Below, piece after piece: positions 7,413 to 46,200 of a stretch of 64,000 nt of DNA. Source of the DNA: Mizuhopecten yessoensis (taxonomy: Eukaryota); contig NW_018407247.1 in assembly GCF_002113885.1 (NCBI RefSeq), positions 285,317 through 349,316 of the forward strand. Reading direction: 5' to 3'. The notes under the pieces were generated by a model, which saw nothing but the letters and a program-made list of their open reading frames with translations, was not told where the DNA came from and made no database searches. The position numbers and the translations under genes are program-made. How positions within the stretch are numbered: the first letter of the stretch is position 1; every line of letters begins with the position of its first letter.

Positions 7413-8196
7413 CCAAGGTATCTGATAATGATTGATGGATATATAGTTCGAAAGATGAGTGTACAGCTGATTCAACATATTCATCTTATAGATTATCACA
7501 CAAAACGGTTCCATAGTTTGAGGTAGAATTTATGCTGGGTCACTTTCTAATGACTTTGAATAACTATTGTCGATATTTCCCTGAAGCTAAATCCATTATA
7601 CACGACCAGTACTGGTTACGGTGTTAATTTAGTAACACCATGTTTCAGCATTAGTTTACAACTCGTTTAGTACCAGGAGCTAGTTACAACAATACAAACT
7701 AAACATGCATTTTTGCGCCCGTACAATAAACGATAGGAACAGTAACAACACATACATGTTTATCATCTACACACTTACTGAGAAACGCTGCAAAAAAATC
7801 GTGTTTTAAATCCTATTAACAGCGATGGTCATTTAAGGACGTGCCTGGTTTTGATGGTTAATATAAACTTTATTTCATTCCAAGTTAACACGTTTACGAA
7901 TTAATCTCCTTATTTCGTTTGATAGCCAAGGGGGTTCATTAGATCTGATGGTTATTTTTTTATTCGGAATACAAGATTTAGCAATAGTAAGTAAAATATC
8001 TAAGAACTTTTTGACAGCATCATTAATATCATCAAAATCACTCAATAAATTCCAGTTAACTGAGCTGAGTTTTTCCCTAAATAAATCGTAATTTCCTAGG
8101 TCAAAAAGCCAAACGTTTCGCTTAAACACCTGCTGCACTGGCTTTGAAATATTAAAAGAACAATAAATTGGACAATGGTATCTAACCGGTTGGTCA

Positions 8197-9169
8197 CATC
8201 CTACATACAAAACTAAGAGACCGTTCTAGCACTTTGAAAAACGATCTATTCCGAGTTAACCTGGTTGATGACCAACGTTGTATGTGTGGTTACCCTATTG
8301 AAGACACCTTTCATTTCTTTTTTAACTGTGATAATTATGTTGAACAGAGAATTAAACTTTATCGTGAACTGAATGCATACATCCCCCTTACATTGAATCT
8401 ACTTCTTTTTGGAGATATAACAATTTCGGAGCAAGAAAACAAAATTATCTTCATGAATACTCAGCAATATATACAAGAATCAAACAGATTTTAACACCCT
8501 TCACCCCTCAAAATCGACATCTTTATTAATATATTTATCTTATTAATAATAATAGATTAACAACACGAGTTGCAACACACAAATATACGTATATATATAT
8601 ATATATAAACATAATGAAGTCGTGTGTTTGGTCTTTCTCTGTGCGGACGGACTAGTTGAAACGGAAATACCAGCAAGAACGGAGTGAACAGGAGGAAGTT
8701 ATAATAGCACGGGATGTGATGAACATTGATCAGAAGAAAGTTGTGAACAGCGAATAGTATAACTAGTCCGTTCGCATGGAGAAGGAACAACCACGTGGTC
8801 TGATATAAATTTTCTTAAATTTACAGTCTTGTTGCAGTACTTATCTAGTAATCTCAAAACATCGGGCCCTCTAACCCCTTCTTCCCTCTCCTCCCCTCTC
8901 ACCATCCCCCTATCTCTCTCTCTTCCTTTATCTACATGTGCATGTTTATATTTGTGCGCATGTGTGTGGTTCGGTGCGTGAATGTGTGGGAGTATGTATG
9001 TCACTGATTAATTAATTTATAATACATAGCTTATTTACGTAGTTCTGCCATCATGAAATTTTGTTAAAAAATATTATTGTACAGGGAAAGGGCTTGATAT
9101 AAGTTGTAAAACTTGTGCCCAATTCCATTGCTATGTAAAAAAAGGCAATAAAATATGTTTAAAACAAAA
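8197..9169 (+). mobile_element. 5'-truncated CR1/L2-group LINE (ORF2 C-terminal Cys/His region + 3' UTR), nested antisense in the host LINE
   Basis: Encodes ILHTKLRDRSSTLKNDLFRVNL...CMCGYPIEDTFHFFFNC and ends in stem-loop + CAATAAAATATGTTTAAA. Flanked by TSD AACCGGTTGGTCA (8184-8196 and 9170-9182). Confidence 0.92.
8620..8796. mobile_element. Small MITE-like inverted repeat inside the LINE 3' UTR
   Basis: Imperfect inverted arms TTCTCTGTGCGGACGGACTAGTT ... AACTAGTCCGTTCGCATGGAGAA. Confidence 0.55.
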
Positions 9170-9280: not shown

Positions 9281-10429
9281 TTAAAAAGTTGGTGATTCAA
9301 CAAGCTGAGTTAGATTAAAGGAAGCAAGTATATCGCGTAAGTGGGAAGAATGGTGGTCTACTAGGGCATTTGCATTGAAGTCTCCGGTTATCACAATATG
9401 AGAGATGCCTGTATTATACGCTTTTTCTATAGAATGCGAGATATGAGACCATATGATGATAGGAGAGTGTGGAGGCCGATAAAAAATACCATATAATATT
9501 TTCTCTGAACCAAGTACAATTTCTAACCAGACACATTCAATGGTAGCTATCTCTATATCTGATCTTCTTTTTGCAGGAATTTTATATTTTACATAAACCG
9601 ATATACCGCCGCCCATTCGATCAGGTCTACAGTAGCAGAATGGGTCAGAATATCCAGGCAGGTTTAGGTCAGATGAGATATCATTTAAATTTAACCATGT
9701 CTCAGTAAAGGATAAAATTGTTATATTACTTAACTCGGTGTAAAGAATATCAAGTTTTTGTTTGAGACTTTGAACATTAAGATGGACAAATGAAAAATTA
9801 CTGACCGCATCGAGCTGGCCAGTAATATTCGAAAAAATAGATGAGGAAGATGAGGAAGATGAGCTAGAACACATGGGACCAGGATTCAGTTCTATATCTC
9901 CAGATAACAACAGATGCCAATAGTCCAAAGCACGACGTAGAGATATAGATAATTTATCAGAAGCGGACATGATAGAAGAGGAGATGAATTTAGCACTTAT
10001 GTAATGAATATCAGGGTTATATTTGAAACTTTTGACGCTAAGATGGACGAAAGAATACCTATCGTTACAGAACTGGATACTTGAAGAGGAAGTAGAAGCA
10101 ATTGATTGAATGGTAGAAGTAGAAAAGTGCTGTGAATTTAACTCAATGTCACCTGACAAATACCAGCTGATCAATGCATAATGTATTGATATAAAAGTAA
10201 GAAATTCTGCTAAAAAGGACGCGAAGTGGTAACATGAACTGCTACGGAACGACTCTCTGAGTGATGAACTAATATTATGTAAATAAGACGTAAAAACATA
10301 TAACAAAAGTAAGAGTAATGCCATACATAACATGTCGGGAACGGTCACGTAATGAGCGAAAATTGCGGACTGTATAAAATTGCTGAAGACACCAATTCGA
10401 ACACGATAGAGAGAAACATCAATAGGCAT
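9281..10429 (-). pseudogene. LINE ORF2 fragment: leader-2A-APE endonuclease
   Basis: Open frame from MPIDVSLYRVRIGVF (ATG at 10429) through LLLSGDIELNPGP (9875-9913) into the APE domain. Stops at 9281. Confidence 0.85.
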
Positions 10430-11599
10430 TATGTAATGCCAGACTGGGCAAGGAGGTAAGTGAGTGCTCGAGAAGGTGTCGTGATCATGATAATAGAAGT
10501 AGTCAGAGGCACACTGGGCAATAGGGGAGGGGGTAGGGCAGAAGAGGAAACGGATATAAAAAAAATGACTATGAAGAGTTGAAATACGTTCATCAGAACC
10601 AAATTTGAAGAGAGGGGGAAAAGACCAGGTAATTGTTAATATTTTGTGACCGGTACTGGAACTGAAAATACAAATAGTAATGTGCACACACACACACACA
10701 CACGTTCATACATGCTCGCGTTAGCAATCATAAATTAACTTACACAATGATAAGGCTCAAATCAAAATAACGTGGACATTATCACTAGGCCTCATTATCT
10801 AGTGGAGTAATTCCACTGGTATCTGCCACAACCAAATAGTGTACAAAAATATGTACAAAATAGACTCATAGTGGTGAGAATGTTAGTTACTCACTTTGAG
10901 AGAAAACATGGGTACATACAAGATTCTATTAACCGGATCCGGTATACAACTTAGGTATAGGTTTGCAGTATAGCAATATATAGCAAATGTATAGCACGGA
11001 GAATTTATGTAATATCATTTTTTTTTTAAATAAGTAGTAGATCTAATAATAATACAAGTAATAGTAGTGTTCATGATAATAAAAAAAATCGACTCAAGGG
11101 GGAAAAAAACAAATAGGTACTACTACATTCAGGATTCTATGATGCTGGATTAGCCGATAACACCCAACTTACAGGTTTTGGTACAGACATAAACAATGTA
11201 ACAGTACATAGCATGATATAAAGCAATTCAACATGTAAGAATATCATAACCAAATTTAAATATTATGTTAGGAGAGTAGTTCACTATCTGTTATGGCCAT
11301 TAGTGTATAATACGGACAAAAAATCATAAGACACAAATTGATTTTTGTTACACTAACGTGTACATTTTACACTGTTTATGGAATCTCTATTGAAATAATG
11401 ATAATAGACAGATAAATTAATCGACGCCGCTAAAATGGGTACTACTACATACAGGAATCTATATACCAGAGTCCTGAGGAGCTGATAACAGCTTACGTAC
11501 AAGTTATAAGAATTTATATTCTAGCTTGCGTATAGGTCTGATATATATAAATAAATAGTGTACCAATACAGATATGAAAATCAAATCAAGGTAACGTAT

Positions 11600-11752
11600 A
11601 TGAGTTGATGGTTGAGGAAAGACAGGTTCCCAGAGAAAAAACACCGACCTACAGCCAGTACCTGGCGGCTGCCTACCGTAGGTCTCGAACCCGCGACCCT
11701 ATGGTTGAGGGCTCATGGTAGCAAAAGGTCAGACGCCTTAACCACTTGGCCG
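11600..11752 (-). mobile_element. V-domain SINE (family also at 23680 and 50540)
   Basis: On the minus strand: tRNA head GGCCAAGTGGTTAAGGCGTC ... GGGTTCGAGACC, then a degenerate V core. Confidence 0.75.
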
Positions 11753-18185: not shown

Positions 18186-21084
18186 ATATATAGCCGCATT
18201 TTAGTTCATGAATATAGTGGTTAATTTCATTAGGAATGGCTGGAAAATAACGACATTGTAAATGTATATAGCTTCATCAGTTATCCATACATACCTGTAC
18301 TCATCACCTGTTGAGGTTCAACGCCTAATGACACTCCATTTAATGACAAGAAACATAATCCCCAATAAGGTTTTGATAAATGATCACAAGATTGTCGAAT
18401 AATACGACACGATCCTTGAAATTCTCCCGGATCAATCATTGCCGTTCAAGAGTAGAATAATATACGTACAGATCATATTCCAACGATTCGCCGACGACTG
18501 TTTCATTAAAGCAGTGACTATGATAATGAACACCAGCCTAGCCTTACACGTACCACACAGAGTCACAACGGTCAGACAGCCTCGCAACACTAATGGCTGA
18601 CACGTCTGATCAGCTTAAGCTAAGTTGACCGGATGTGGATTTTGGCCGGATGTGGAAAACATGTGAAAATGATGATGAGTGGTTGTTGTCATCTAAAGTG
18701 ATGGCATTGAATTAAAATGTAGAAAAAATATGTAATAACCTACAATTGTTTATGAGATACAAATAACATTTTGCTAGACAGTAATATCACTTGAAACCTT
18801 TTTGGAACTTCATATGTTACTGTCAACGGTAGTATTAAAATATTGAAATTAAAAAAAAACACAACGAAATTAAAACAGTCATCATTTATTGTTGGTACAT
18901 TTTAACAATTCCACGTTCACATATTATCAATAAACAAGACGAAAATAATATAAAATGTTCGTAAATTTACATTTCATCAGCTGTAAGCCTAAGGTCGTCA
19001 TTGTTAAAATGGCTGCCGGTAATTTACACATTCCAGTGGAGTTGAATGTATCGGCAGCAATAACTAAAAATTTCCTCCGTACCAACTGACATACACTGAC
19101 ATTCTGTTCACGCAATATCTATTCCCGAAGCCGACAACAAAATTAAATGGCGTATTGTTTGAGACTCTAAACTGCCTCACGGATCGAATTCCGGACTTAT
19201 TGCTGTAAACTGATTGTATGTGTTAGGGTTGGTGATATAGCTAACGAAATAAGATATCTAATGATTGATGGAAAGTCTACATCGTCGGGAACTCAGGTTA
19301 TATTGGTGGGCGAGGAAAAGCGCCAAGTCGATTGCATATTACATAATTCGCTAGATTATATTCTGTAATTATTTACATGATCAACTGCAGTACACATTCC
19401 ATTGGAAGTATTTATAGTATCCGGACTAGCTCCAGCTTCACTTAGTTCTATTAGCAGAGTACCTTGGCTGTCGTATCAATATTAAGAGGTCGTCACGTAA
19501 TCGTGAAGATTTTTTTCTGCATTGGTCATTGATCCTATACCTTCTACGCAGCAGATATAATGTAACAATCCAAAAAGCAACGTAATCATGTTAATAATTT
19601 TAAAAGAACGACGAAAGAATATTAATCATATTCATTAAATGGATGTCTTGATAATTATGCAACCGTTAATTGAAATTTTTGATGAAACAATACTTAAAAA
19701 CGTCGGATACATGTATGTATGATGTTACTCACTACCCCAATAGTTAATCCCTTTACCAGCGAAATAGAAATAAAGGATGACATAAAGGCAACTTATCTTC
19801 TGTTTGATATCCTCTTTAGAACTGAATTAAATACAGCATAACGAGTTATAAACACGGGCTTAAGTATTCGCGATCTTGACCGAAAATTAAAACAATAGGA
19901 TTTACACGGGTTACAATTTCGCTATCAAGACACGTGAAGGATCTAAATTTTCCCGGTTTTTTAACACATAGACGGGACACTCGGCACAAAAAATGTCAAA
20001 TAATCAAATGAATAGGCTTAATGACAGAAAATAGAGCAGCACCAAGATAGTATATTTCGTTAAACAAATCATCAACAAAACAATTCTATCAACGTTTGAT
20101 GTAATCGATCCTCAATCAACATTACTCGGCATGTATGTGTATCGTCACGACCACATGCGCGCTATTCCATGACGACATGACGGTAATTAAGTTTAAGCTT
20201 GTCGTATTATTCTGCGGATCATATTTTCGCGATTACGTAATTGACCCGCGAAAAACGCGAAAATATCTTCCTCGCGGAAATATTCGGTTTTGCTACAAAG
20301 CCTTAGTTTACACAAAGGAAAACACTCATTAGTAATGTATGTTTCCTATATATGCTTCTTTCAGTTGGCATCCATGGGCATTCATATTGCCTATGAGTGC
20401 CAACTGAAAGCAGATCCATGACTATATTGCCAAGGGGGGCGTCAGTAGTTTCCAACGTAACAATTATGACGTCAACAAACGGTCCGTGGCGTTCATAGCC
20501 TATATGAATGCCAACTGAATTTGTTAGGGTTATAATTATAGTGACAATGCCATACGATGGTAAATATTGTAGTATAGAACTGCTGGTAATGGTTTTGAAA
20601 AGTTAGTCACTGAATATCTTAACATTTATTTAATAAATGTTGGTTTCATTATTGCATACTTCATTGTAAACATAATCTCGACTAAAGTCTTGTTACAAAC
20701 ATAGTATTTATTATTGTAATATCTTATATATTGTTTAAAACTTATCTTTTTCTGGTTGCATCCATGGTATCAATGTAGGCCGGAGATTTAACCATAAAAG
20801 ACTTAGCCAGACAATAGGCAAAACTATATCATGCTGAATTTAACACACTTCCTGGTTTTGTTAAATCTTGCAGGTCTATCATCTTGTTGTGTACACTTAA
20901 CGTCAGCCTGTATTTTGACGCTGATGCCCAAACTACTTTCAACGTCTATGTTGAAAGTAATTGGTTGCATCGACAGACAAAGCATCTAATAGCTTAACCC
21001 CTGTCTGAAAACACTTTTACATATACAGCTTGCAAAATCAACAAGACTTGCTTGCATATGAGATTACATTTATTTGAGAGCCTA

Positions 21085-26832: not shown

Positions 26833-27090
26833 GTTTGTTCCAGATTGGGTTTTTACACCACTAGAGTTCCGTATATACAGAAATATTAAAAAAAAATGGA
26901 ATTGCGGGGACTTAACAGATTTGTCGTTATTTACCTTAAAGTCGATATATTTGGTTATATACCTTCTATACGATAAAATCGCACATAACAGAATGTTTAT
27001 AAGTTCATAGAACACATTTTTAAAGTCAGCATGTGGAAAAAATGATCGAACCACCATGAGCATATAACACAAGTTTTACAATGATCTCTG
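26833..27090. repeat. Dispersed repeat, copy 1 (near-identical to 30881-31135)
   Basis: The two copies give nearly identical spurious ORFs (MCYMLMVVRSFF...) and matching DNA. Confidence 0.9.
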
Positions 27091-27300
27091 CGACAATCAC
27101 TCAAGTCGTGTTCAGAGCAAATAAGCAGTAATGGTACTAAAACACTGCCTTGAGGTACACCAAAATAAATATTATACATGTTGCCAAGTAAGTCTGCATG
27201 AGTTCTATCAGAAAAGATGAACTGCACAAGCCAACGTTCATACGATATAGTTAAAGATATATGTATTTCATGATCAACGATGTCAGATCCATTGTTTGAA
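27090..27300 (-). mobile_element. Decayed LINE reverse transcriptase fragment
   Basis: GVPQGSVLVPLLLICSEHDLSDC corresponds to the RT motif GVPQGSVLGPLLFxxYxNDL. Confidence 0.65.
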
Positions 27301-27499
27301 ATAAGCAAAACCGTTCCAGGATCGTGTGCAAGCATGCGTTTTTTTATGAAGTAAATTAAATGGATTAGAACTGTCGGATAACATGTACTGAAACTACACT
27401 AGTATTTATGTAACAAATGTTGATTTGAATAAATATCTACCGAATATAACATGAACATCTTTCTGAAGAATATTTGACACTTAACTCAGAATACTTGCC

Positions 27500-32317: not shown

Positions 32318-35300
32318 TAGTTTTATTAGTTTAGTTTAAACATATTTTATTGACAACATATTGACAAAGGGATTAGTTGGTAAGTTTTTCAAACTTATCA
32401 ATTGACTTCTCCCGTAATACAGACAAATACAATAATACAAAATTGTCACATGATGGTAAGAAAATAAATATGTTATTAATGAATGAGAGAGAGAGAGAGG
32501 GGTTGGGGTTGGGGTACGGTAAGATAAGAACCAGGAGACAGGACTGGGGTTGGAGGTTGGATAGAGAGGAGTGGGGTTTGTAGTTAGTCAAATCTACCCG
32601 ATCTTCCCAGGAAAAAATGTGCAGCCTTGGCTAGTTTCATATTACCATTTGGTGAGACGTTGGGGTCACCTTTACAAAGAATATCTACGTTTATGTCGCC
32701 TTCGTACCATTCTAATTCGGTAATGAGTGTTCTTCGTAAATTATAATACAAAGGACAAATAAGGGAAAAATGATAACAATCTTCACAGGGATGCCCACAC
32801 CTGCAATCAGCTAAACCGACTAGATTTGCTCTGAAAAGATCATAATATAATGAGTTAGCTCGATTTCTAAGACGACAAAGGAGCATATTTAATTTTCTCG
32901 GTCCATAGTTTACGAAATGCTTGCTAAACAAATTATTTACTATCATAGGCTTTTTTACATTAGACTTGAAAGAATTTAGTGAGGGTGAGTTTCTTACAGT
33001 GTTGTTCAAGAATTTTAATGTGGAAGAAAAGAAAGAATTTTTTGATAGTTGTAAACGGAAGCGTGTTCCCGCAGTAAATGTGCATTTCGCAAATTATACG
33101 GAGCTATATTTCAAATATACATTGGGTAATAAGTCAGTAAGAAATTTAGGTGCCATGTTATTTACTATAGAATAAGACAAGGAAAGTTTCCGAGCATCTC
33201 TTCTTTTCGAAAGGGGTAACCATCCGGTTTCTTGATATAAGAAATCTTTTTTAGTGAATGTGGTTAGCCCTGTGACTATACTTGCAGCTTCTAGATGGAT
33301 TTTTTCTAGTGACAGGGCGGCGATTGTTTCACCGCAGTTGTCCCATACTTCACATGCATATTTCAGTAGTGGTCGAACATAAGTAAGATATAGTTTTTCT
33401 AATGTATTTCTTTTTAAAATAAGTTTTAGTTTACGAAGGGTTGCTATATATTTGGTTACTTTACTGACAATATATTTAACATAAACATTCCATTTACAGT
33501 CGTTAGTAAGAATAACACCTAAGTGCTTATGTTGGTTAGTTATTAGAATGGGGGTATTATTAAATGTGAATGAAGGGATGAATGGGATATGCCGATTTGA
33601 GATGACTAGGGCCTCAGTTTTGGTAGGGTTAAAAGACATCAGCCATTCTTTGGACCAAACTTCAAGTTTTCTCAGATCAGATTTTGCTTTGGATGAAATT
33701 GTGTTTAAGTCTTGGGACGAATAAGACAGAGTGGTATCATCAGCAAAAAGTCTAGAGAGAGAGGAAAGATCACAGGAAATATCATTTATGTATATAAGGA
33801 AGAAAAGAGGACCAAGAACAGAACCTTGAGGAACACCAGCTTTTATGGCCTTAAAGGAAGAAAGAGAATCATTGATAGAAACCGCCTGTTGTCTGTTTGA
33901 AAGATAACTAGTAATCTACTGAAGAAGAGGGCCAGAAATGCCATAATTATTCAATTTATGTATTAGACCTCTGTGCCAGACGCGGTGAAAAGCTTTTGAA
34001 AAATCACAAAACATTAATAGAGAATGTTCGTTATTGTCTAAAGAGGTAACTATTGAATGGTATAGCTCAATAAGTTGATGTGTCGTGGAATGGTTAGGTA
34101 AAAATCCTGACGAATATTTGTAAAAAAGGTCATTTTCAATCAAAAAGTTATCTGTATGTTTATAAACCAAACGCTCAAACAGTTTTCCGATACAGCTTAT
34201 CAATGAAATCGGTCTGTAATTGGAGGTAATACTTACATCATTCGCTTTATAGATAGGCATGACATGAACGATTTTCCAGTTATAAGAATATGTACAAGAA
34301 TACAGAGAATAATTAAAAATAATGGATAGCGGTACAGAAATCTCGCTAGATAATAATTTGAGCATTTTATGGCTAATACCGTCAGGACCTGATGCCTTAT
34401 TTACATCTAGAATTTTTATAATATCTTCAACTTCACTGGGATTTCTATTTATTTCTGATAAGATGCAGTCAGTCCTCCTCTCAAAAAAAGGCAATCCTTT
34501 GTCTGTATCAATTTCTGATAACGAACACACAAAACTAAAGTAGTTATTTAAGAGTTCACATTTTCTATCGTTGTCATAAATTATTTTATTTGTAGTACCG
34601 TCTAATAACGGGGATATTTCGGTGTGTTTTTTTTAGCTTTAAGAAGATTTCGGAGCAGTTTCCAATAAATCTTAGGATTGTTGCTACTTTTATCAATTAC
34701 TGTATTTATGCTATCATAAAATATTTCTTTAGCTCTCTTAATCATATTATTTACTTTATTTCTCATGTATTTGTACTTGTTTTTGTTGCACTCACTGTTA
34801 TTGTTAAACATTATTTTTTTAAGTCTATCTCTTTTCCTAATATTACGTCTGAACAATCCATTCATCCACGGTTTATCACTATCGCGTACTAATACTACTT
34901 TTGATGGTATACATTTGACAACGGCATCAACAAATTTCTCGGTAAAGAAATTGCACATTTCATTAACATTTAATAAGTTAGCAAGATTGGCTAACCAAGG
35001 GATACTATTTATCGTGTCTTTAAGTTTGNCAACAATAATAGGGTAAAGAAGTGTTGAGGAGGTATCGGTTTGTCTAGTTGGTTCAGTTATTATATTGGTC
35101 AAATTATAGTTAGACATAATATTAGATAGATCGCCTCTAACAGTTTTTAGAAAATCAACATTTAAATCACCTGTGATTATTATATTGGTCGTTTCTTCAA
35201 ATGCAATATCAAGCGAGTGTCTCAGATGCTGCCATAAACTATCATTATTATAAGAGGGGGTTTATATAGGTTACAAATTCGATATAATGTATTTTGAAAT

Positions 35301-36300
35301 TTAATTTGGGACCATATAGTTTCATCGCTACCAATTTCAAGATCGTTTCTCCGCTTGGCTACGAGTGATTCAGAAAAATACATAGCAACCCCACCACCAA
35401 ACATGTTTCTATCCTTACGAAGTGGTTCAGGGAAACCATCAATTTTAAGTTCAGAATATGGAACAGAGTTATCAAGATGGGTTTCAGTAAAGCATAACAT
35501 ATTAATATCATCTATTAAGGAACAAATATAGTTTACGTTGTTACGCAGACTGCGAATGTTTAAATGAAACAAACTAAGGACATTGGGAGCCGAGCTACTA
35601 TTAGAATTGGGCCCCGGGTTAGGGTGGATATCACCAGCTATCAGTAAGATAATTAAGGCTGAATTGAATGGATTGCGGATGGAGTTGGACAACTGCAGTA
35701 GCAACAAATAGATCCGATGGAGACAGTTAAGATTGGAGATTAATGTTTTAAACCTTTTGAAGTAATTGTTTTTAAAAACAAGGGTGACTGGTAAACATGC
35801 TAACTTACAATAGAAACATCCTATAGCAGCCCTCCAAGCGCATAAGTCATAACCCGTCATGCAGGGACAAAATTAAAAATCACTAAAAATTGATGGAGGT
35901 CTACCAACAGTGACTGGGATGAACAAGCATATCCTAGGGAGGAGGGGGTAGTGGAGTCAAGAAGAGGAAAGAAATAGATCAAGGAAGAAGAATAAGACAC
36001 ACGAAGAAAAAACAGGAAAAGAACACAAGGATCGAAAAGGCATAGAAAAAAACCTATATACATTACTGATATGAAGCCAACAATTGGCATCAGCGATGAT
36101 CGACTTTATAACTGAGTCGACCATGGTGAGGTGGGTGACAATACATTGACAGGGAAAATGGCATAATCATGGTAATTTGAGAGGAAAAAATATAATAATA
36201 AAAAATTAATAAAAAAAAGAATACATATATATTCGTGTGTGTAATTTATATAAAAAAAAGAAATCATCTCGGAGATTTGCAGTAAGCATACATTGAAATT
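32318..36300 (-). mobile_element. Near-complete ORF2 CR1/L2-group LINE (leader-2A-APE-RT-C-terminal Cys/His), frameshifted
   Basis: Motifs GDIHPNPGP, HLNIRSL, CFTETHL, KASGPDGI, NYRPISL, DFSKAF, GVPQGSVLGP, LFADD, KHLGV and CRCGHPCEDCYH. 3' stem-loop, CAATAAAATATGTTTAAA and (AAACT)n tail. N gap at 35029. The 5' limit is approximate. Confidence 0.96.
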
Positions 36301-36389
36301 TAACAAGTAATAATATAATGTTTCATGGTATTGCGGGTCACGAGAGGGGACAGATCCAACACAGACGGCGTCAGTTATACACGGTTCTA

Positions 36390-36898
36390 CTATTCACTAT
36401 ATGCACTCAACTTGTCAAATGTCTGTGACATCCCGTCCCGTAAATCTTCCTCCTGGTCATCCATTTCTTCCTTGAAATACATTCCACTGCGCCGTCTATG
36501 CTGGAAAAGGCCGCCCACATGATTTTTTTTTAAATATGCAACGTATCGTATTATGTATATGGCACATATGCTATGTCTCCTAATTATGTAATTAAATGCA
36601 TGCATCCGACTAAATAAAAAAACGAGATTGGATATTCATTAAAAAAATAAAAAATAAAAACGTGTAACAGCTCTCTCCTGATTTTTTTTTTTTTTAAACT
36701 TGAATTAACCATTTTGGTACTGATGTTTGGATGAAAACCTCAGACATGGACACATTATTTGCTGTTGTACATCTGGTGGCTGCGGAAATGTAATTATACA
36801 TCCCATCAAGAAACGGCGTATACTCACCATGGCGAGCAGATCTAGAGCCAGCCATTCTTCACCACATGAAAGGCAGTATTTACAATCAAGGAATGCAT
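36390..36898 (-). CDS. Candidate last two exons of an unidentified gene (36828-36898 and 36390-36500)
   Basis: CCAG|..AFLDCKYCLSCGEEWLALDLLAM|GTGAGT, then CTTTTCCAG|HRRRSGMYFKEEMDDQEEDLRDGMSQTFDKLSAYSE*. The phase-0 junction is consistent and both blocks are GC-richer than their flanks. Confidence 0.4.
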
Positions 36899-37067
36899 CT
36901 GGCAATTTAAGTCGGAATGCATGTATTAACTCAAATTTTGATGAGATAGAGATAGATTTTAATTGAAATATCGTTATGTCTTCCAAATTGTTTTATATAG
37001 ATCTTTCATGGTCACACAAAGTCTATGTACAATAATTTTGATCACTTTTGTAAGCAATTGTATATTG

Positions 37068-38110
37068 ATACACTTTTAAGAGGTACAAATACACTTTTAG
37101 CGGTACATATACACTTTTAGCGGTACATACACACTTTTAGCGGCACACATACACTTTTAGCGGTACATATACACTTTTAGCGGTACATATACACTTTTAA
37201 GTGCTCCATATACACTTTTAGCGGTACATAAACACTTTTAAGAGGTACATATACACTTTAAGCGTTACATATACACTTTTAGCGGTACACATACACTTTT
37301 AGCGGTACATATACACTTTTAAGTGCTACATATACACTTTTAGCGGTACATAAACACTTTTAAGAGGTACATATACACTTTAAGCGTTACATATACACTT
37401 TTAGCGGTACATATACACTTTTAGCGGTACATATACACTTTTAAGAGGTCGTATAAACTTTAAGCGTTACATATACACTTTTAGTGGTACACATACACTT
37501 TTAGCGGTACACATACACTTTTAAGCGGTACATATACACTTCTAGCGGTACATATACACTTTTAGCGGTACATATACACTTTTAGCGGTACATATACACT
37601 TTTAGCGGTACATATACACTTTTAGCGGTACATATACACTTTTAGCGATACATTTACACTTTTAACGGTACATATACACTTTTAGCGGTACATATACACT
37701 TTTAGCGGTACATATACACTTTTAGCGTTACATATACACTTTTAGCGGTACATATACACTTTTAGCGGTACATATACACTTTTAGCGGTACATATACACT
37801 TTTAGCGGTACATATACACTTTTAGCGGTACATATACACTTTTAGCGGTACATATACACTTTTAGCGGTACATATACACTTTTAGCGGTACATATACACT
37901 TTTAGCGGTACATATACACTTTTAGCGGTACATATACACTTTTAGCGTTACATATACACTTTTAGCGGTACATATACACTTTTAGCGGTACATATACACT
38001 TTTAGCGGTACATATACACTTTTAGCGGTACATATACACTTTTAGCGTTACATATACACTTTTAGCGGTACATATACACTTTTAGCGGTACATATACACT
38101 TTTAGCGTTA
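37068..38110. repeat. 20-bp satellite (TACACTTTTAGCGGTACATA), resumes at 38672-38731
   Basis: Tandem array is directly visible. Confidence 0.98.
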
Positions 38111-39906: not shown

Positions 39907-42030
39907 TCCTCTAAGGTAGGTTTGAATGTAGTAATGTGTAGTTAGTAGATAATGTGGTCCTCTAAGGTAGATTTGACTGTAGTAATGTGTAGTCAGTAGA
40001 TAATGCGTTCCTCTAAGGTAGCTTTGACTGTGGTAATGTGTAGTTAGTAGATAATGTGGTCCTCTAAGGTAGCTTTGACTGTGGTGATGTGTAGTCAGTA
40101 GATAATGTGGTCCTCTAAGGTAGGTTTGACTGTAGTAATGTGAAGTTAGTAGATAATGTGGTCTTCTAAGGTAGGTTTGACTGTAGTAATGTGAAGTTAG
40201 TAGATAATGTGGTCCTCTAAGGTAGATTTGACTGTAGTAATGTGTAGTTAGTAGATAATGCGGTTATCTAAGGTAGGTTTGACTGTGGTAATGTGTAGTT
40301 AGTAGATAATGCGGTCCTCTAAGGTAGGTTTGGCTGTAGTAATGTGTATTTAGTAGATAATGCAGTCCTCTAAGGTAGGTTTGACTGTAGTGACGTGTAG
40401 TTAGTAGATAATGTGGTCCTCTAAGGTATGCTTGACTGTAGTCATGTGTAGTTAGTAGATAATGTGGTCTTCTAAGGTAGATTTGACTGTAGTGATGTGT
40501 CGTTAGTAGATAATGTGGTCCTCTAAGGTATGCTTGACTGTAGTCATGTGTAGTTAGTAGATAATGTGGTCTTCTATGGTAGATTTGATTGTAGTAATGT
40601 GTAGTTAGTAGATAATGCGGTCCTCTAAGGTAGGTTTGACTGTAGTAATGTGTATTTAGTAGATAATGCAGTCCTCTAAGGTAGGTTTGACTGTAGTGAT
40701 GTGTAGTTAGTAGATAACGTGGTCCTCTAAGGTAGGTTTGACTGTAGTGATGTGTAGTTGGTAGATAATGTGGTCCTCTAAGGTAGGTTTGACTATAGTA
40801 ATGTGTAGTTAGTAGATAATGTGGTCTTCTAAGGTAGATTTGACTGTAGTAATGTGTAGTTAGTAGATAATGTGATCCTCTAAGGTAGGTTTGACTGTAG
40901 TAATGTGTAGTTATTAGATAATGTGTTCTTCTAAGGTAGGTTTGACTGTAGTAATGTGTAGTTAGTAGATAATGCGGTTATCTAAGGTAGGTTTGACTGT
41001 AGTAATGTGTAGTTATTAGATAATGTGGTCTTCTAAGGTAGGTTTGACTGTAGTAATGTGAAGTTAGTAGATAATGTGGTCCTCTAAGGTAGATTTGTCT
41101 GTAGTAATGTGTAGTTAGTAGATAATGCGGTCCTCTCAGGTAGATTTGACTGTAGTAATGTGTAGTTAGTATATAATGTGATCCTCTAAGGTAGGTTTGA
41201 CTGTAGTAATGTGTAGTTAGTAGATAATGCGGTTATCTAAGGTAGGTTTGACTGTAGTAATGTGTAGTCAGTAGATAATGCGGTTATCTAAGGTAGGTTT
41301 GACTGTAGTAATGTGTAGTCAGTAGATAATTAGATAATGTGGTCCTCTAAGGTAGATTTGACTGTAGTTATGTGTAGTCAGTAGATAATGCGGTTATCTA
41401 AGGTAGGTTTGACTGTAGTAATGTGTAGTTAGTAGATAATGCGGTTATCTAAGGTAGGTTTGACTGTGGTAATGTGTAGTTAGTAGATAAGGCGGTCCTC
41501 TAAGGTAGGTTTGACTGTAGTAATGTGTAGTCAGTAGATAATTAGATAATGTGGTCCTCTAAGGTAGATTTGACTGTAGTTATGTGTAGTCAGTAGATAA
41601 TGCGGTTATCTAAGGTAGGTTTGACTGTGGTAATGTGTAGTTAGTAGATAAGGCGGTCCTCTAAGGTAGGTTTGACTGTAGTAATGTGAAGTTAGTAGAT
41701 AATGTGGTCCTCTAAGGTAGATTTGACTGTAGTTATGTGTAGTCAGTAGATAATGCGGTTATCTAAGGTAGGTTTGACTGTGGTAATGTGTAGTTAGTAG
41801 ATAAGGCGGTCCTCTAAGGTAGGTTTGACTGTAGTAATGTGAAGTTAGTAGATAATGTGGTCCTCTAAGGTAGATTTGACTGTAGTAATGTGTAGTTAGT
41901 AGATAATGCGGTCCTCTAAGGTAGATTTGACTGTAGTAATGTGTAGTCAGTAGATAATGCGGTTATCTAAGGTTGGTTTAACTGTAGTAATGTGTATTTA
42001 GTAGAACATGTAGCTATACGGTAGATTTGC
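39907..42030. repeat. 51-bp satellite (~41 copies) adjoining a gap
   Basis: Unit GGTCCTCTAAGGTAGGTTTGACTGTAGTAATGTGTAGTTAGTAGATAATGT. Confidence 0.98.
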
Positions 42031-42297
42031 CTGTAGTTTTATAAAGGTATGTCTTGCATCAGTTAGCTGTATTTGCTTTTCTTAGGCAGGTTTGAATTTA
42101 GTCATAGGCACATTGTAGCTACATGTGGTCTTCTTAGGCAAGGATTGAGCACAATCACGATTCACAATTTTGTTTCAATCTTAGTGTAACGTTTTTATTA
42201 TTGGTTAAAACAGTTGAACCACATTGCCGTTCATCACTTCACGATAGCCCAACTATTAATTAGATATTGCTCTGCCTTGTTATATCAACGTTGCAAT

Positions 42298-43200
42298 TAA
42301 CAAGATACGTGAACAAGATACATGATACATGAACAAGATACATGAACAAGATACATGAACATGATACATGAACAAGATGCATGAACAAGATACATGAACA
42401 AGATACAAGATACATGAACAAGATACATGAACAAGATACATAACATGAACAAGGTACATGATACATGATACATGAACAAGATACATGATACATGAACAAG
42501 ATACATGAACAAGATACATGAACAAGATACATGATACATGCTACATGATACATAAACAAGATACAAGATACATGAACAAGATACATGATACATGAACATG
42601 ATACATGCTACATGAACAAGATACCTGAACATGATACATGAACAAGATACATGATACATGAACAAGATAATGAACAAGATACATGATACATGAACAAGAT
42701 ACATGATACATGAACAAGATACATGAACATGATACATGAACAAGATACATGATACATGAACAAGGTACATGAACAAGATACATGATACATAAACAAGATA
42801 CAAGATACATGAACATGATACATGCTACATGAACAAGATACATGAACATGATACATGAACAAGATACATGATACATGATGCATGAACAAGATACAAGATA
42901 CATGAACAAGATAAAGATACATGAACAAGATACATGAACAAGATACATGAACAAGATACATGGACAAGATACAAGATACATGAAAAAGATACATGAACAA
43001 GATACATGAACATGATACATGAACAAGATACATGAACAAGATACATGAACAAGATACATGACCAAGATACATGAACAAGATACATGAACAAGATACATGA
43101 ACAAGATACATGATACATGAACAAGATACATGAACAAGATGCATGAACAAGATGCATGAACAAGATACATGATACATGAACAAGATACATGAACAAGATG
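42298..43200. repeat. Compound 13-bp/7-bp simple repeat (GATACAT / GAACAA modules)
   Basis: Irregular concatenation of GATACATGAACAA and GATACAT. Confidence 0.97.
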
Positions 43201-46200
43201 CAACACACAAGAAACTTCATTTAAAGTCGCATACATGTACACATGCTCTTGAGATCTATTATTGCGACAGACATATGTATAGGAATAAAGTCGGTAGAGC
43301 GATGACAATTTTTGTATTCTAAAAAACGACTAAATATTTACGAATTTCTTAAATATAACATTTACTTCAGTGATGGAGAGCAGCTTAGGTTTAAAAGAGG
43401 ATTTTGAGTCAAAATCAATATCTGTAGACATTCTTTCCATTGGATGTTGAGCGAACTTCAGACTGTTTGGTAAATCCAAATGTTGTTGCCCTTATTTGTC
43501 ATTGGTTTATGTCGTAAATTAGCCGGTATCTCTGACAAGCCACGTCTTAGGAGCCATGTTTTGTGGACGAATAAATCTAACACTCGGCAATACCTTCATT
43601 CACAAACCCGACGATGATCAACACAAACCTCATTTGCATGTAAAATTCACCCACGTGTTTCTATAGACAGCCAGGCGCCCTGTGGAGATAACATTTAGTC
43701 AGCACCTAAGTATGATTAAGCCTCTATAATTACTCTTCCGATTTTAGTTTAAGTGTTTAGTGAAGATCTATTTAGTGCGGCTCAGTTTTCGGTTGAAAAT
43801 AGCATTGCTGTTTGCTTGACCTTTGTTTTAAAATATAAAAATTAAAACTTTTGGATTTTGAAGAAAAGAAATTGCCAAATATTGTAGCTTTGCAGGCTTG
43901 AATGGTTTAATTCCTCGCCGATCATCAAACATAACTAATCAATACAGGTCTTCATCAGTATCGACTTATTCAAGTCCGGTATAGCTGTTCGTTTGGTGGC
44001 ATTCTGTTTTGCGTTCTTTTAGAAGTTCAGGTCGCGCGGTATCCACAGATGATAGTCCGGTAAAAAGGGACTTGAAAAGTGTAATCTCGGTCCAATTTTA
44101 TAACTTGGATATTGTGCAGTGGTATATAGCACTTGATTGGCTAGCCAAATGTACTCAAGGAAAAAAGACAGCGATCCCAGCGTCCATTTACAGCAGCAGT
44201 CGGATGCTTAATTGTTTGATGGCAAGGACGCTAAGGAAACTTTAGATTCTTGAAGAGCCTCTAACGTGAGATTGGATATTGCAGATCTTTTATATTCTAA
44301 AAAAAAGTATTTGATTATTTCCCGGGAGAGAAGTGAGATTAAACCATTTATTTAAGACATTTGCATAAATATACTGAATATTCTTTATGATTCGAAATAA
44401 ACAGACTAGTATGATGAAAGTTAATCGTTTATAAATCTCAAAACAATAATTTCACGATACTTTACTACCATATATATTAGCAAGAGGTATGATGTAAACA
44501 AGAAAGAATGATAATATGAGAATATGTCCTGCGCAAAATAAGAGTATTTTCCCAAGAACAAACTTGTGCTCCTTCCCTGGCCGACTTCTTTTTATATGAG
44601 TGTGCTATATTGGTGATCTCTTGCTGTTATCAGTTTTTAAATAGCAAGAAACTTCATGGCCACATTGATCTACATTACTCCCTTAACTGTCTCCTTAACA
44701 GGCGAATGCACCGTAAGCTTTACCACATCAGCCGCTTAGCTGGATCTTTACTTAACATGACCAACATGGACATTCTGGTCATTGTCTTTACCTTTCCTGA
44801 TAGTAGCGTCTTTGACCCTCCACCCCCACCTTCGGTAACTGTAGTGAATGGAGCAGGTAGATATCGTGTCCAGGAGAAGTTGAATATTTCATTCCCAGAT
44901 CCTAGGACGGTCTACACAAGTGTTTTACACCATAAAACACGAAACTGGTTATTTATGTGCCGAGTGCAAGAAAGTAACACAATTATTTTCTTGGAGGAGT
45001 ATCCACCACCCAACCTCAATTCACAGTATAAGGGAACGTTTATTGGATCAAATCACTCAACTTTAGCAAAACTGGACGACACTGAAACACGTTTCGGGAA
45101 CATTCAATCAACAGTGTGCATATAACACCTTATAATAGTTGATAGACAAAAACAAACACAAACACAAACATAATTAATCAGTCTTATGTGTCGACTACAA
45201 AATAGGAGATTTGTTAGATAAATTTGACAATTTGACATAAAAGCAGACACATATCCAATCATGAAATATAAGTGATAATTATAATATTACCTATTTTGAG
45301 GAACAACAGGACAAATACTGTGAAATGACGCCATTGGAATTCCTCATAAAAGGTCTTCAACTCATTTATTATAATGATCATAATATAATGATGTACACTT
45401 AACCAAACTGCACTCAATATAAAACACATTTCCAGAACAAACCTGTATAATAATAGCAAAGTTTGTAAAATTCAAGAACAAAGACATTGGGTGAGGTAAA
45501 ATATTCATAGTTCTGCAGAGAAGGTAAACTTTTCACAGTTCTGCAGAAAATGTAAAATATTCACAGTTTCTGCAGAAAAGTTGAAATATTCTTAGTTCTG
45601 TAGAGAAACTGAACAATTTTCGAAGGAAATTCATGGCCGAATAAATATATATTTTTTCACATCTTAAAGCGGATAAACAGAGTTATGTCTCAACAAATAC
45701 AGATTTATCTATTTATGACGAGCAATATACACACAGCCAATCACGGAGCTGTATCAGCACGCGAGTTCAATCCGGGACATGGAGATCACAGTCAAGGACG
45801 TGAGATAATAGTCAAGGTCGAAGTAAGCAAGTTCAAGGTCGCGAAAGAATACACTAAGAACACTTCAACTGCTGTCCGCTGTTGGCCCCCTAGACTTATT
45901 AATGATTCTCTATATAGGTCTGTACCAGAAACTGTTCTGTTAAATACTCTCCATAAATGCGTGCGGAGTATTGTTTCAAAACACGATATTTTTTGTTTCA
46001 ATTAAAACATTTGTTTTGAGGTATGCTGTATTATACATGTTAAAGATCACACTCACTGTCCAATTTCATATCATGTAGAATTCATTTTGTTTAACTTATG
46101 AACATCTGCTTTCAAATATGTATTATGTTTTAAAGTTAAGAAGGGACATGTGCTTTGCATTCTTTGACATTGTAAATGCATCCCTAGAGGGTACACTTTG

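Follow-up and report, generated by a model that had tools for sequence, protein, structure and literature searches.

A conserved N-terminal motif ahead of the 2A-like site in ORF2 of probable CR1-group LINE copies from Mizuhopecten yessoensis

Two LINE copies in a 64,000-nucleotide stretch of Mizuhopecten yessoensis DNA (contig NW_018407247.1, hereafter the window) begin ORF2 with a leader that carries a conserved motif at its start, M-[GP]-x5-6-[WYHF]-R-x2-[IV]-G-x-[FY]. Behind the motif come a variable stretch that is predicted to be helical, then a 2A-like site, then the endonuclease. The architecture itself is already known, while the apparently undescribed part is a testable detail, namely that across distant families the first 16 codons are under roughly the same constraint as the endonuclease. 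Judged from their sequence, the two copies (elements 1 and 2) are probable CR1-clade LINEs of the two-gene type that have been truncated at the 5' end. We favor, with a probability of about 0.5, a reading in which the leader is the start of ORF2 and would act in cis as a throttle on the synthesis of the ORF2 protein. Earlier work on the question of what LINEs use their 2A sites for assayed no more than the final 20-30 residues; the part before the 2A contains a separate conserved motif, which offers two invariant residues and a spacing as targets for mutation.

The start of ORF2 in the window copies

Both elements lie on the reverse strand. In element 1 the sequence MTGYDLCAWRAAIGCF runs from the ATG at 35860 in frame with GDIHPNPGP at 35635-35609 and then the APE endonuclease. 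The start codon and N-terminal motif, MTGYDLCAWRAAIGCFY, occupy 35810-35860, with a helix predicted at residues 6-21. The middle of the leader (35675-35809) is variable, predicted to be helical, under weaker constraint and lacking a clear membrane segment. It is followed by the 2A-like site (35609-35674), a leucine-rich arm plus GDIHPNPG/P, with 83 amino acids from the start to the G/P site. The arm (ALIILLIAG, at about -19 to -10) coincides with a predicted helix at 64-74, and a leucine-rich helix is a criterion for class A 2A/StopGo sequences defined in PMC13405545. The remainder of ORF2, covering the APE endonuclease, reverse transcriptase (RT) and C-terminal part, is interrupted by stops and frameshifts to about 32587 (32587-35608), with the RT still present; its identity to CR1-1_CGi, 68 of 120 residues or 57% by hand count, points to the CR1 group. 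The 3' terminal sequence at 32334-32351 (-) recurs at the ends of the loci L095, L096 and L121, and a second window copy of it lies at 9147-9164 (+).

In element 2 the sequence MPIDVSLYRVRIGVF begins at the ATG at 10429, and its start codon and motif, MPIDVSLYRVRIGVFS, are of a second subtype (10382-10429). The canonical 2A core, GDIELNPG/P, lies at 9901-9875, 184 amino acids from the start, with the class A core D[VI]ExNPGP at 9898-9875, and is followed by the APE endonuclease (9284-9874; Pfam PF03372, E 1.6e-8). The leader owes this length to an in-frame duplication in the family (L055-L063) that spans about 85 residues and repeats the 2A together with the beginning of the endonuclease. The first core, at 10136-10153, is degenerate and reads GDIELN then SQ, without PGP. 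The initial annotation had put the released leader at 83-100 residues, which describes element 1; in element 2 the site near 100 residues is this GDIELNSQ.

A third LINE had also been credited with the leader and a 2A-like site. Element 3 retains a decayed 2A, RDIKSNPGR (1382-1356, -), in which the class A core is degenerate, and a weak endonuclease start (1164-1382; tblastn E 0.01 within the window). The upstream leader motif is absent, the best site in 1400-1900 scoring -7.1 (rank 170) in the matrix scan described below, and a search for a second DNA copy of this element found none. The shared leader and intact 2A-like site are thus confined to elements 1 and 2.

Odon et al. (2013) described CR1, L2, Crack, Rex1 and Ingi elements with a 2A-like site some 40-80 residues into ORF2, and in CR1-1_CGi, CR1-1_LG and CR1-17/26/36/46_BF the site likewise stands directly before the APE domain (PMC3708506). 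The core of element 1, an E-to-H variant of D[VI]ExNPGP, is identical to that of CR1-36_BF and CR1-46_BF, that of element 2 is shared with CR1-1_LG, and the DIHPNPGP core is recorded in several amphioxus CR1s (PMC12338488). The arrangement was initially considered a candidate for a little-described system, a view that these reports of N-terminal 2As and DIHPNPGP variants in CR1-group LINEs overtake. The accessible parts of PMC3708506 mention no conserved start motif before the 2A, unlike the elements described here, and the duplicated, half-degenerate 2A of element 2's family also differs from the elements in that paper.

The window holds further short fragments of LINE ORF2 at 7878-8240 (-), 8186-8494 (+), 19572-19670 (+) and 26997-27398 (-). 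Tandem repeat arrays at 22-990, 37060-38110, 39907-40977 and 42260-43220 give rise to long spurious reading frames.

Recurrence of the leader motif

To locate the motif we used a scoring matrix built on 16 leaders from other loci and applied it to 126,668 six-frame windows. Elements 1 and 2 scored 39.6 and 31.3 bits, and the next best window scored 7.7. In an alignment of 13 leaders conservation is limited to the start and the 2A, and NPGP is retained in all 12 families of the first subtype. In a second set of 20 loci, picked by a match to the 2A and endonuclease and grouping into seven families, the variant MPIxxxx[YHF]xxR[IV]GxF was present in six of the seven. The motif recurs across lineages that are distant on the RT tree, which was built without reference rows and on which element 2's family forms a long branch. 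The distance from start to 2A is not strict: L181 has 75 residues, the second subtype 105-117 and element 2 184.

A leader profile that omitted the 2A was searched against 1.84 billion proteins. It matched 63 proteins, or 62 once P0003, a chance match to a repeat, was dropped, and in 53 of them the motif lies at residue 8-9. A downstream DxxxNPG was present in 26 of the 47 proteins long enough to reveal one, in 22 of these 26 at 80-91 residues from the start. Nearly all of the matches are unnamed proteins. A word-seeded homolog search with one leader (L095, region 1-95) gave no matches, and profile searches were needed. A description of the N-terminal motif was not found in the accessible literature; Repbase entries, theses and subscription papers may contain one.

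Most families have an ATG at the motif, often directly after an in-frame stop. In a young family of 12 loci (L033-L040, L084-L087), several with open frames of 1,149 codons, the motif is kept and the ATG is replaced by TTA GTA (L084:4167-4200). The first in-frame Met in this family lies 18 residues ahead of the 2A end, making it a candidate for AUG-independent initiation.

ORF1, spacers and truncation

The initial annotation had reported that no ORF1 was visible and that only non-coding DNA preceded the better-preserved leaders. The second statement is accurate for the window, where the truncated copies gave no ORF1 match, and is explained by 5' truncation at 36566 in element 1 and near 11603 in element 2, beyond which siblings continue. 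The first does not hold for the relatives, which were drawn from the 988-Mb genome and several of which have open frames of more than 1,100 residues; a normal ORF1 in full-length copies was among the outcomes that the initial annotation had itself named as refuting. Full-length relatives are ordered as a short 5' UTR, an L1-type ORF1, a spacer of 1-3 kb, the leader, the 2A-like site, the endonuclease and the RT. ORF1 was matched in 16 of 40 long loci, six of which are the query sources or their near-copies, and lies upstream on the same strand in three of 20 further loci.

L095 shares its 5' end with L096 in an alignment of 7.06 kb at 99.8% identity, is flanked by a 13-bp target-site repeat and has an empty site spanned by a separate contig. 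For these reasons we take L095 to be a full-length element, with ORF1 beginning about 85 bases from the 5' end. In a profile search with ORF1, human L1 ORF1p ranked first (E 0.011), and the modeled ORF1 structure matched human L1 ORF1p in Foldseek at E 2.4e-7. The ORF1s of the relatives fell below detection in Pfam, which found RVT_1 and Exo_endo_phos on both the window pieces and the intact relatives. The coiled coil, single RRM and C-terminal domain are those of the Type II (L1-like, transposase 22) ORF1 of CR1/L2 elements (Metcalfe and Casane 2014, PMC4120745); compared with the accessible account of that type, the ORF1 here is below Pfam detection, and the spacer between it and ORF2 is unusually long.

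The spacer remnant of element 1 covers 35861-36566 (-), and four siblings extend upstream of its end in common sequence. ORF1 of this family is seen only in a decayed sibling, L123, by way of shared spacer pieces. The remnant of element 2 covers 10430-11603 (-), and ORF1 is found farther upstream in the family member L101. Nine ORF1-ORF2 spacers (L084, L089, L093, L095, L097, L101, L132, L133 and L137) are 1.1-3.0 kb long and contain 30-94 ATGs, the bounds of L093 and L101 being approximate. The last 300 bases of these nine are pyrimidine-rich. Because the spacer is 1-3 kb long, truncated copies appear to be without ORF1, and on sequence grounds we ascribe the absence in the window to truncation inside it. 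Most families with copies of sufficient length yielded an ORF1. The approximately 4 kb examined contained none in L090/L091/L135, L094, L176, L179, L181 or L193; truncation or N-masking can explain its absence in these six families, although it does not prove it.

Elements with a 2A were mostly reported to be without ORF1, with CR1-1_LG as an exception (PMC3708506), which differs from the families here, in which ORF1 sits 1-3 kb before ORF2 and truncation removes it. Luke et al. (2013), who proposed down-regulation of ORF2, cautioned that truncation may affect the ORF1 count (PMC3894237). The published link between gain of a 2A and loss of ORF1 is weakened for this lineage.

A 155-base segment of the element 1 spacer (36354-36507, -) is 78% identical to L113/L116:1501-1654, from a family that is distant on the RT tree, and ORF1 of L123 has 69% DNA identity to the ORF1 of the same family. 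Together these similarities suggest that a 5' module consisting of ORF1 plus spacer has been exchanged between families. The conserved segment is a possible cis-element. It matched nothing in Rfam, and we claim no RNA structure for it, as a z score of -2.8 for one sequence was accompanied by a different consensus for five sequences and almost no covariation. The RNA reads, few in number, unstranded and derived mainly from diverged copies, reveal neither the transcript nor its start; on L095 they showed no joint across the spacer at a depth near 1, which excludes nothing.

Other rearrangements were seen among the relatives. L084:661-7951 is inserted in a LINE of another family (L093 type), the host sequence continuing on both sides, and the L123 spacer holds a nested LINE. 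In two relatives of element 1, L120 and L123, a deletion has removed ORF2 from around its start codon through to the 3' end, spacer and tail being what remains, and we class both by this structure as non-autonomous derivatives.

Constraint and possible roles of the leader

Across eight non-overlapping family pairs pN/pS was 0.42 (0.29-0.59) in the first 16 codons, 0.56 in the middle, 0.29 in the 2A and 0.38 in the endonuclease, values obtained with synonymous sites close to saturation, with a protein-guided alignment that pushes the figure for the variable middle downward and with a motif window picked after the motif had been seen. Bootstrap intervals were below 1 in every part, and 14 overlapping pairs were concordant. 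The recurrence of the motif in the protein profile search and in the second set of loci does not depend on these choices. These ratios mark the leader as coding sequence conserved as protein in its first 16 codons and 2A. In element 1 the leader ATG is also the sole Met ahead of the first endonuclease motif, and the expectation that the leader would be translated and constrained, with ORF2 starting at its ATG, was borne out. A leader free of constraint that was merely propagated in recent copies, or a likeness due to chance, would fit the decay of the window copies themselves and the tendency of T-rich DNA to encode hydrophobic residues. With intervals that exclude 1 in all parts, and with motif and downstream 2A recurring together in proteins found by a profile that lacked the 2A, we give this explanation hardly any credence.

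Alternatively, the conserved codons could serve as an RNA signal by which ORF2 is initiated internally, possibly without an AUG, the peptide motif being a by-product. Consistent with this, pS drops from 0.65 in the endonuclease to 0.52 (0.40-0.64) in the first 16 codons, GGT encodes the Gly next to Met in 11 of 12 families compared with a background of 43% (a post hoc comparison of families that are not independent), one family retains the motif without its ATG, the spacers are rich in AUGs, and translation of human L1 ORF2 is AUG-independent (review, PMC11485995). The motif has a pN well under its pS, however, its invariant Gly is encoded by GGA, GGC and GGT and its invariant Arg by AGA, AGG, CGG and CGT, and it survives between lineages distant on the RT tree, making the RNA signal quite improbable as the main cause of conservation.

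The initial annotation had described a hydrophobic stretch in the leader and proposed that skipping would release a membrane- or signal-like microprotein. To assess the first point the best 19-residue stretch outside the 2A leucine arm was compared with composition-shuffled controls. Hydrophobicity exceeded the controls in only two of 13 leaders and in two of five further leaders of the second subtype, with no excess in element 1 (P 0.15) or element 2 (P 0.27), so that the hydrophobic stretch is not a general property and the membrane or signal role is weakly supported. AlphaFold predicted helices at residues 6-21, 33-62 and 64-74 with a mean pLDDT of 78 and a pTM of 0.35; given this pTM, no compact fold is predicted. 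For the 84-residue leader Pfam gave no family and an Atlas search gave only unnamed clusters at 0.83-0.84, below 0.9, while its model gave no match in Foldseek and only generic long helices, with Z at most 5.0, in VIA-align. N-myristoylation was dropped as a candidate on inspection of residue 2, where element 1 has Thr, element 2 has Pro and several homologs have Ala.

A released microprotein with its own function, possibly membrane-associated, would agree with a leader that is open and under purifying selection over its entire length, with the confident helices, with the membrane-like segments of the second subtype and with sea-urchin NLR N-terminal 2As, which double as signal sequences (Roulston et al. 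2016, PMC4981915). In those proteins too an N-terminal hydrophobic stretch ends in a 2A core and the product is split into two forms; there, as far as the accessible text describes, the 2A itself is the N-terminal signal, whereas here about 60 motif-bearing residues precede it and the arm is not N-terminal. The microprotein reading is unlikely in view of the lack of a predicted compact fold, a middle part that is only 36-40% identical and variable in length, and hydrophobicity that rarely exceeds composition. Since ORF1 is present, the leader would also not be an ORF1 substitute.

The activity of the 2A bears on whether the leader is released at all. Two molluscan CR1 2As skip in vitro, and the E-to-H variant Crack-15_BF has very low activity (PMC3708506). 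Snell and Matreyek traced both skipping and a drop in abundance to leucine-rich arms, with 59% of the tested ORF2p 2As lowering protein abundance (PMC13405545). Of 14 H variants looked up in that dataset five fall in skipping classes and five are plain non-skippers, and 19 LSGDIELNPGP peptides include seven in skipping classes and four plain non-skippers. A 2026 preprint reports E14H as the sole tolerated change at that position in P2A, and as not tolerated in F2A (10.64898/2026.09.24.754024). The suggestion that the E-to-H change tunes skipping is plausible, with an effect that depends on context in the published assays.

If H-type sites rarely skip, the leader would stay on ORF2p as an N-terminal extension, its first helix binding the endonuclease, RT or ORF1p in the mature particle. 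The non-skipping H variants fit such an extension, as do the variation at the Glu position (E in 15, H in five, A in three, Q in two and S in one of the 26 database proteins) and a motif conserved like the enzyme domains. It is harder to see why a mere linker would be the most constrained part measured, with NPGP kept throughout the first subtype, and the related molluscan sites do skip. We consider an uncleaved extension unlikely.

In the throttle that we prefer, ribosomes would enter internally near the leader AUG, because scanning past the 30-94 AUGs of the spacer is implausible. They would pause at the leucine helix and DxHxNPG/P, and fall-off, skipping or read-through after the pause would keep ORF2p scarce. 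The published proposal of ORF2 down-regulation, the share of ORF2p 2As that lower abundance and the tolerance of E14H in P2A speak for this reading. The ribosome exit tunnel holds about 35-40 residues, and at the pause the N-terminal helix would probably lie outside it. In the weakest step, the exposed helix might dock on ORF1p, on the RNP of the element itself, on a ribosome-associated factor or on some similar partner, and the pause would in this way be linked to the assembly of the particle. That the motif conserves small residues and keeps Arg and Gly invariant points to a docking helix exposed during the pause. XBP1u, in which the nascent chain pauses while an earlier N-terminal segment is exposed to a partner, offers an analogy in the way it works only, its sequence being unrelated to the LINE leader. 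Counting against the throttle are the mixed behavior of the published H variants, the variable spacing of 75-184 residues, the missing motif ATG in the young family, and the fact that a throttle by itself needs no conserved motif 65 residues upstream.

In a further reading the 16-residue helix would be an undescribed, portable peptide module, displayed to ORF1p or a host factor by a ribosome paused at the 2A about 85 codons downstream, so that ORF2p would be loaded on its own RNA or the particle routed in the cell. This proposal is unlikely; if true, LINE 2A sites would serve cis-preference as well as dosage. The module may have spread beyond ORF2, as the database protein P0072 has the motif and a 2A followed by a CxxC-rich stretch in place of the endonuclease. 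Another of the matched proteins, P0008, carries the motif twice ahead of a single 2A, followed by sequence that is not an endonuclease.
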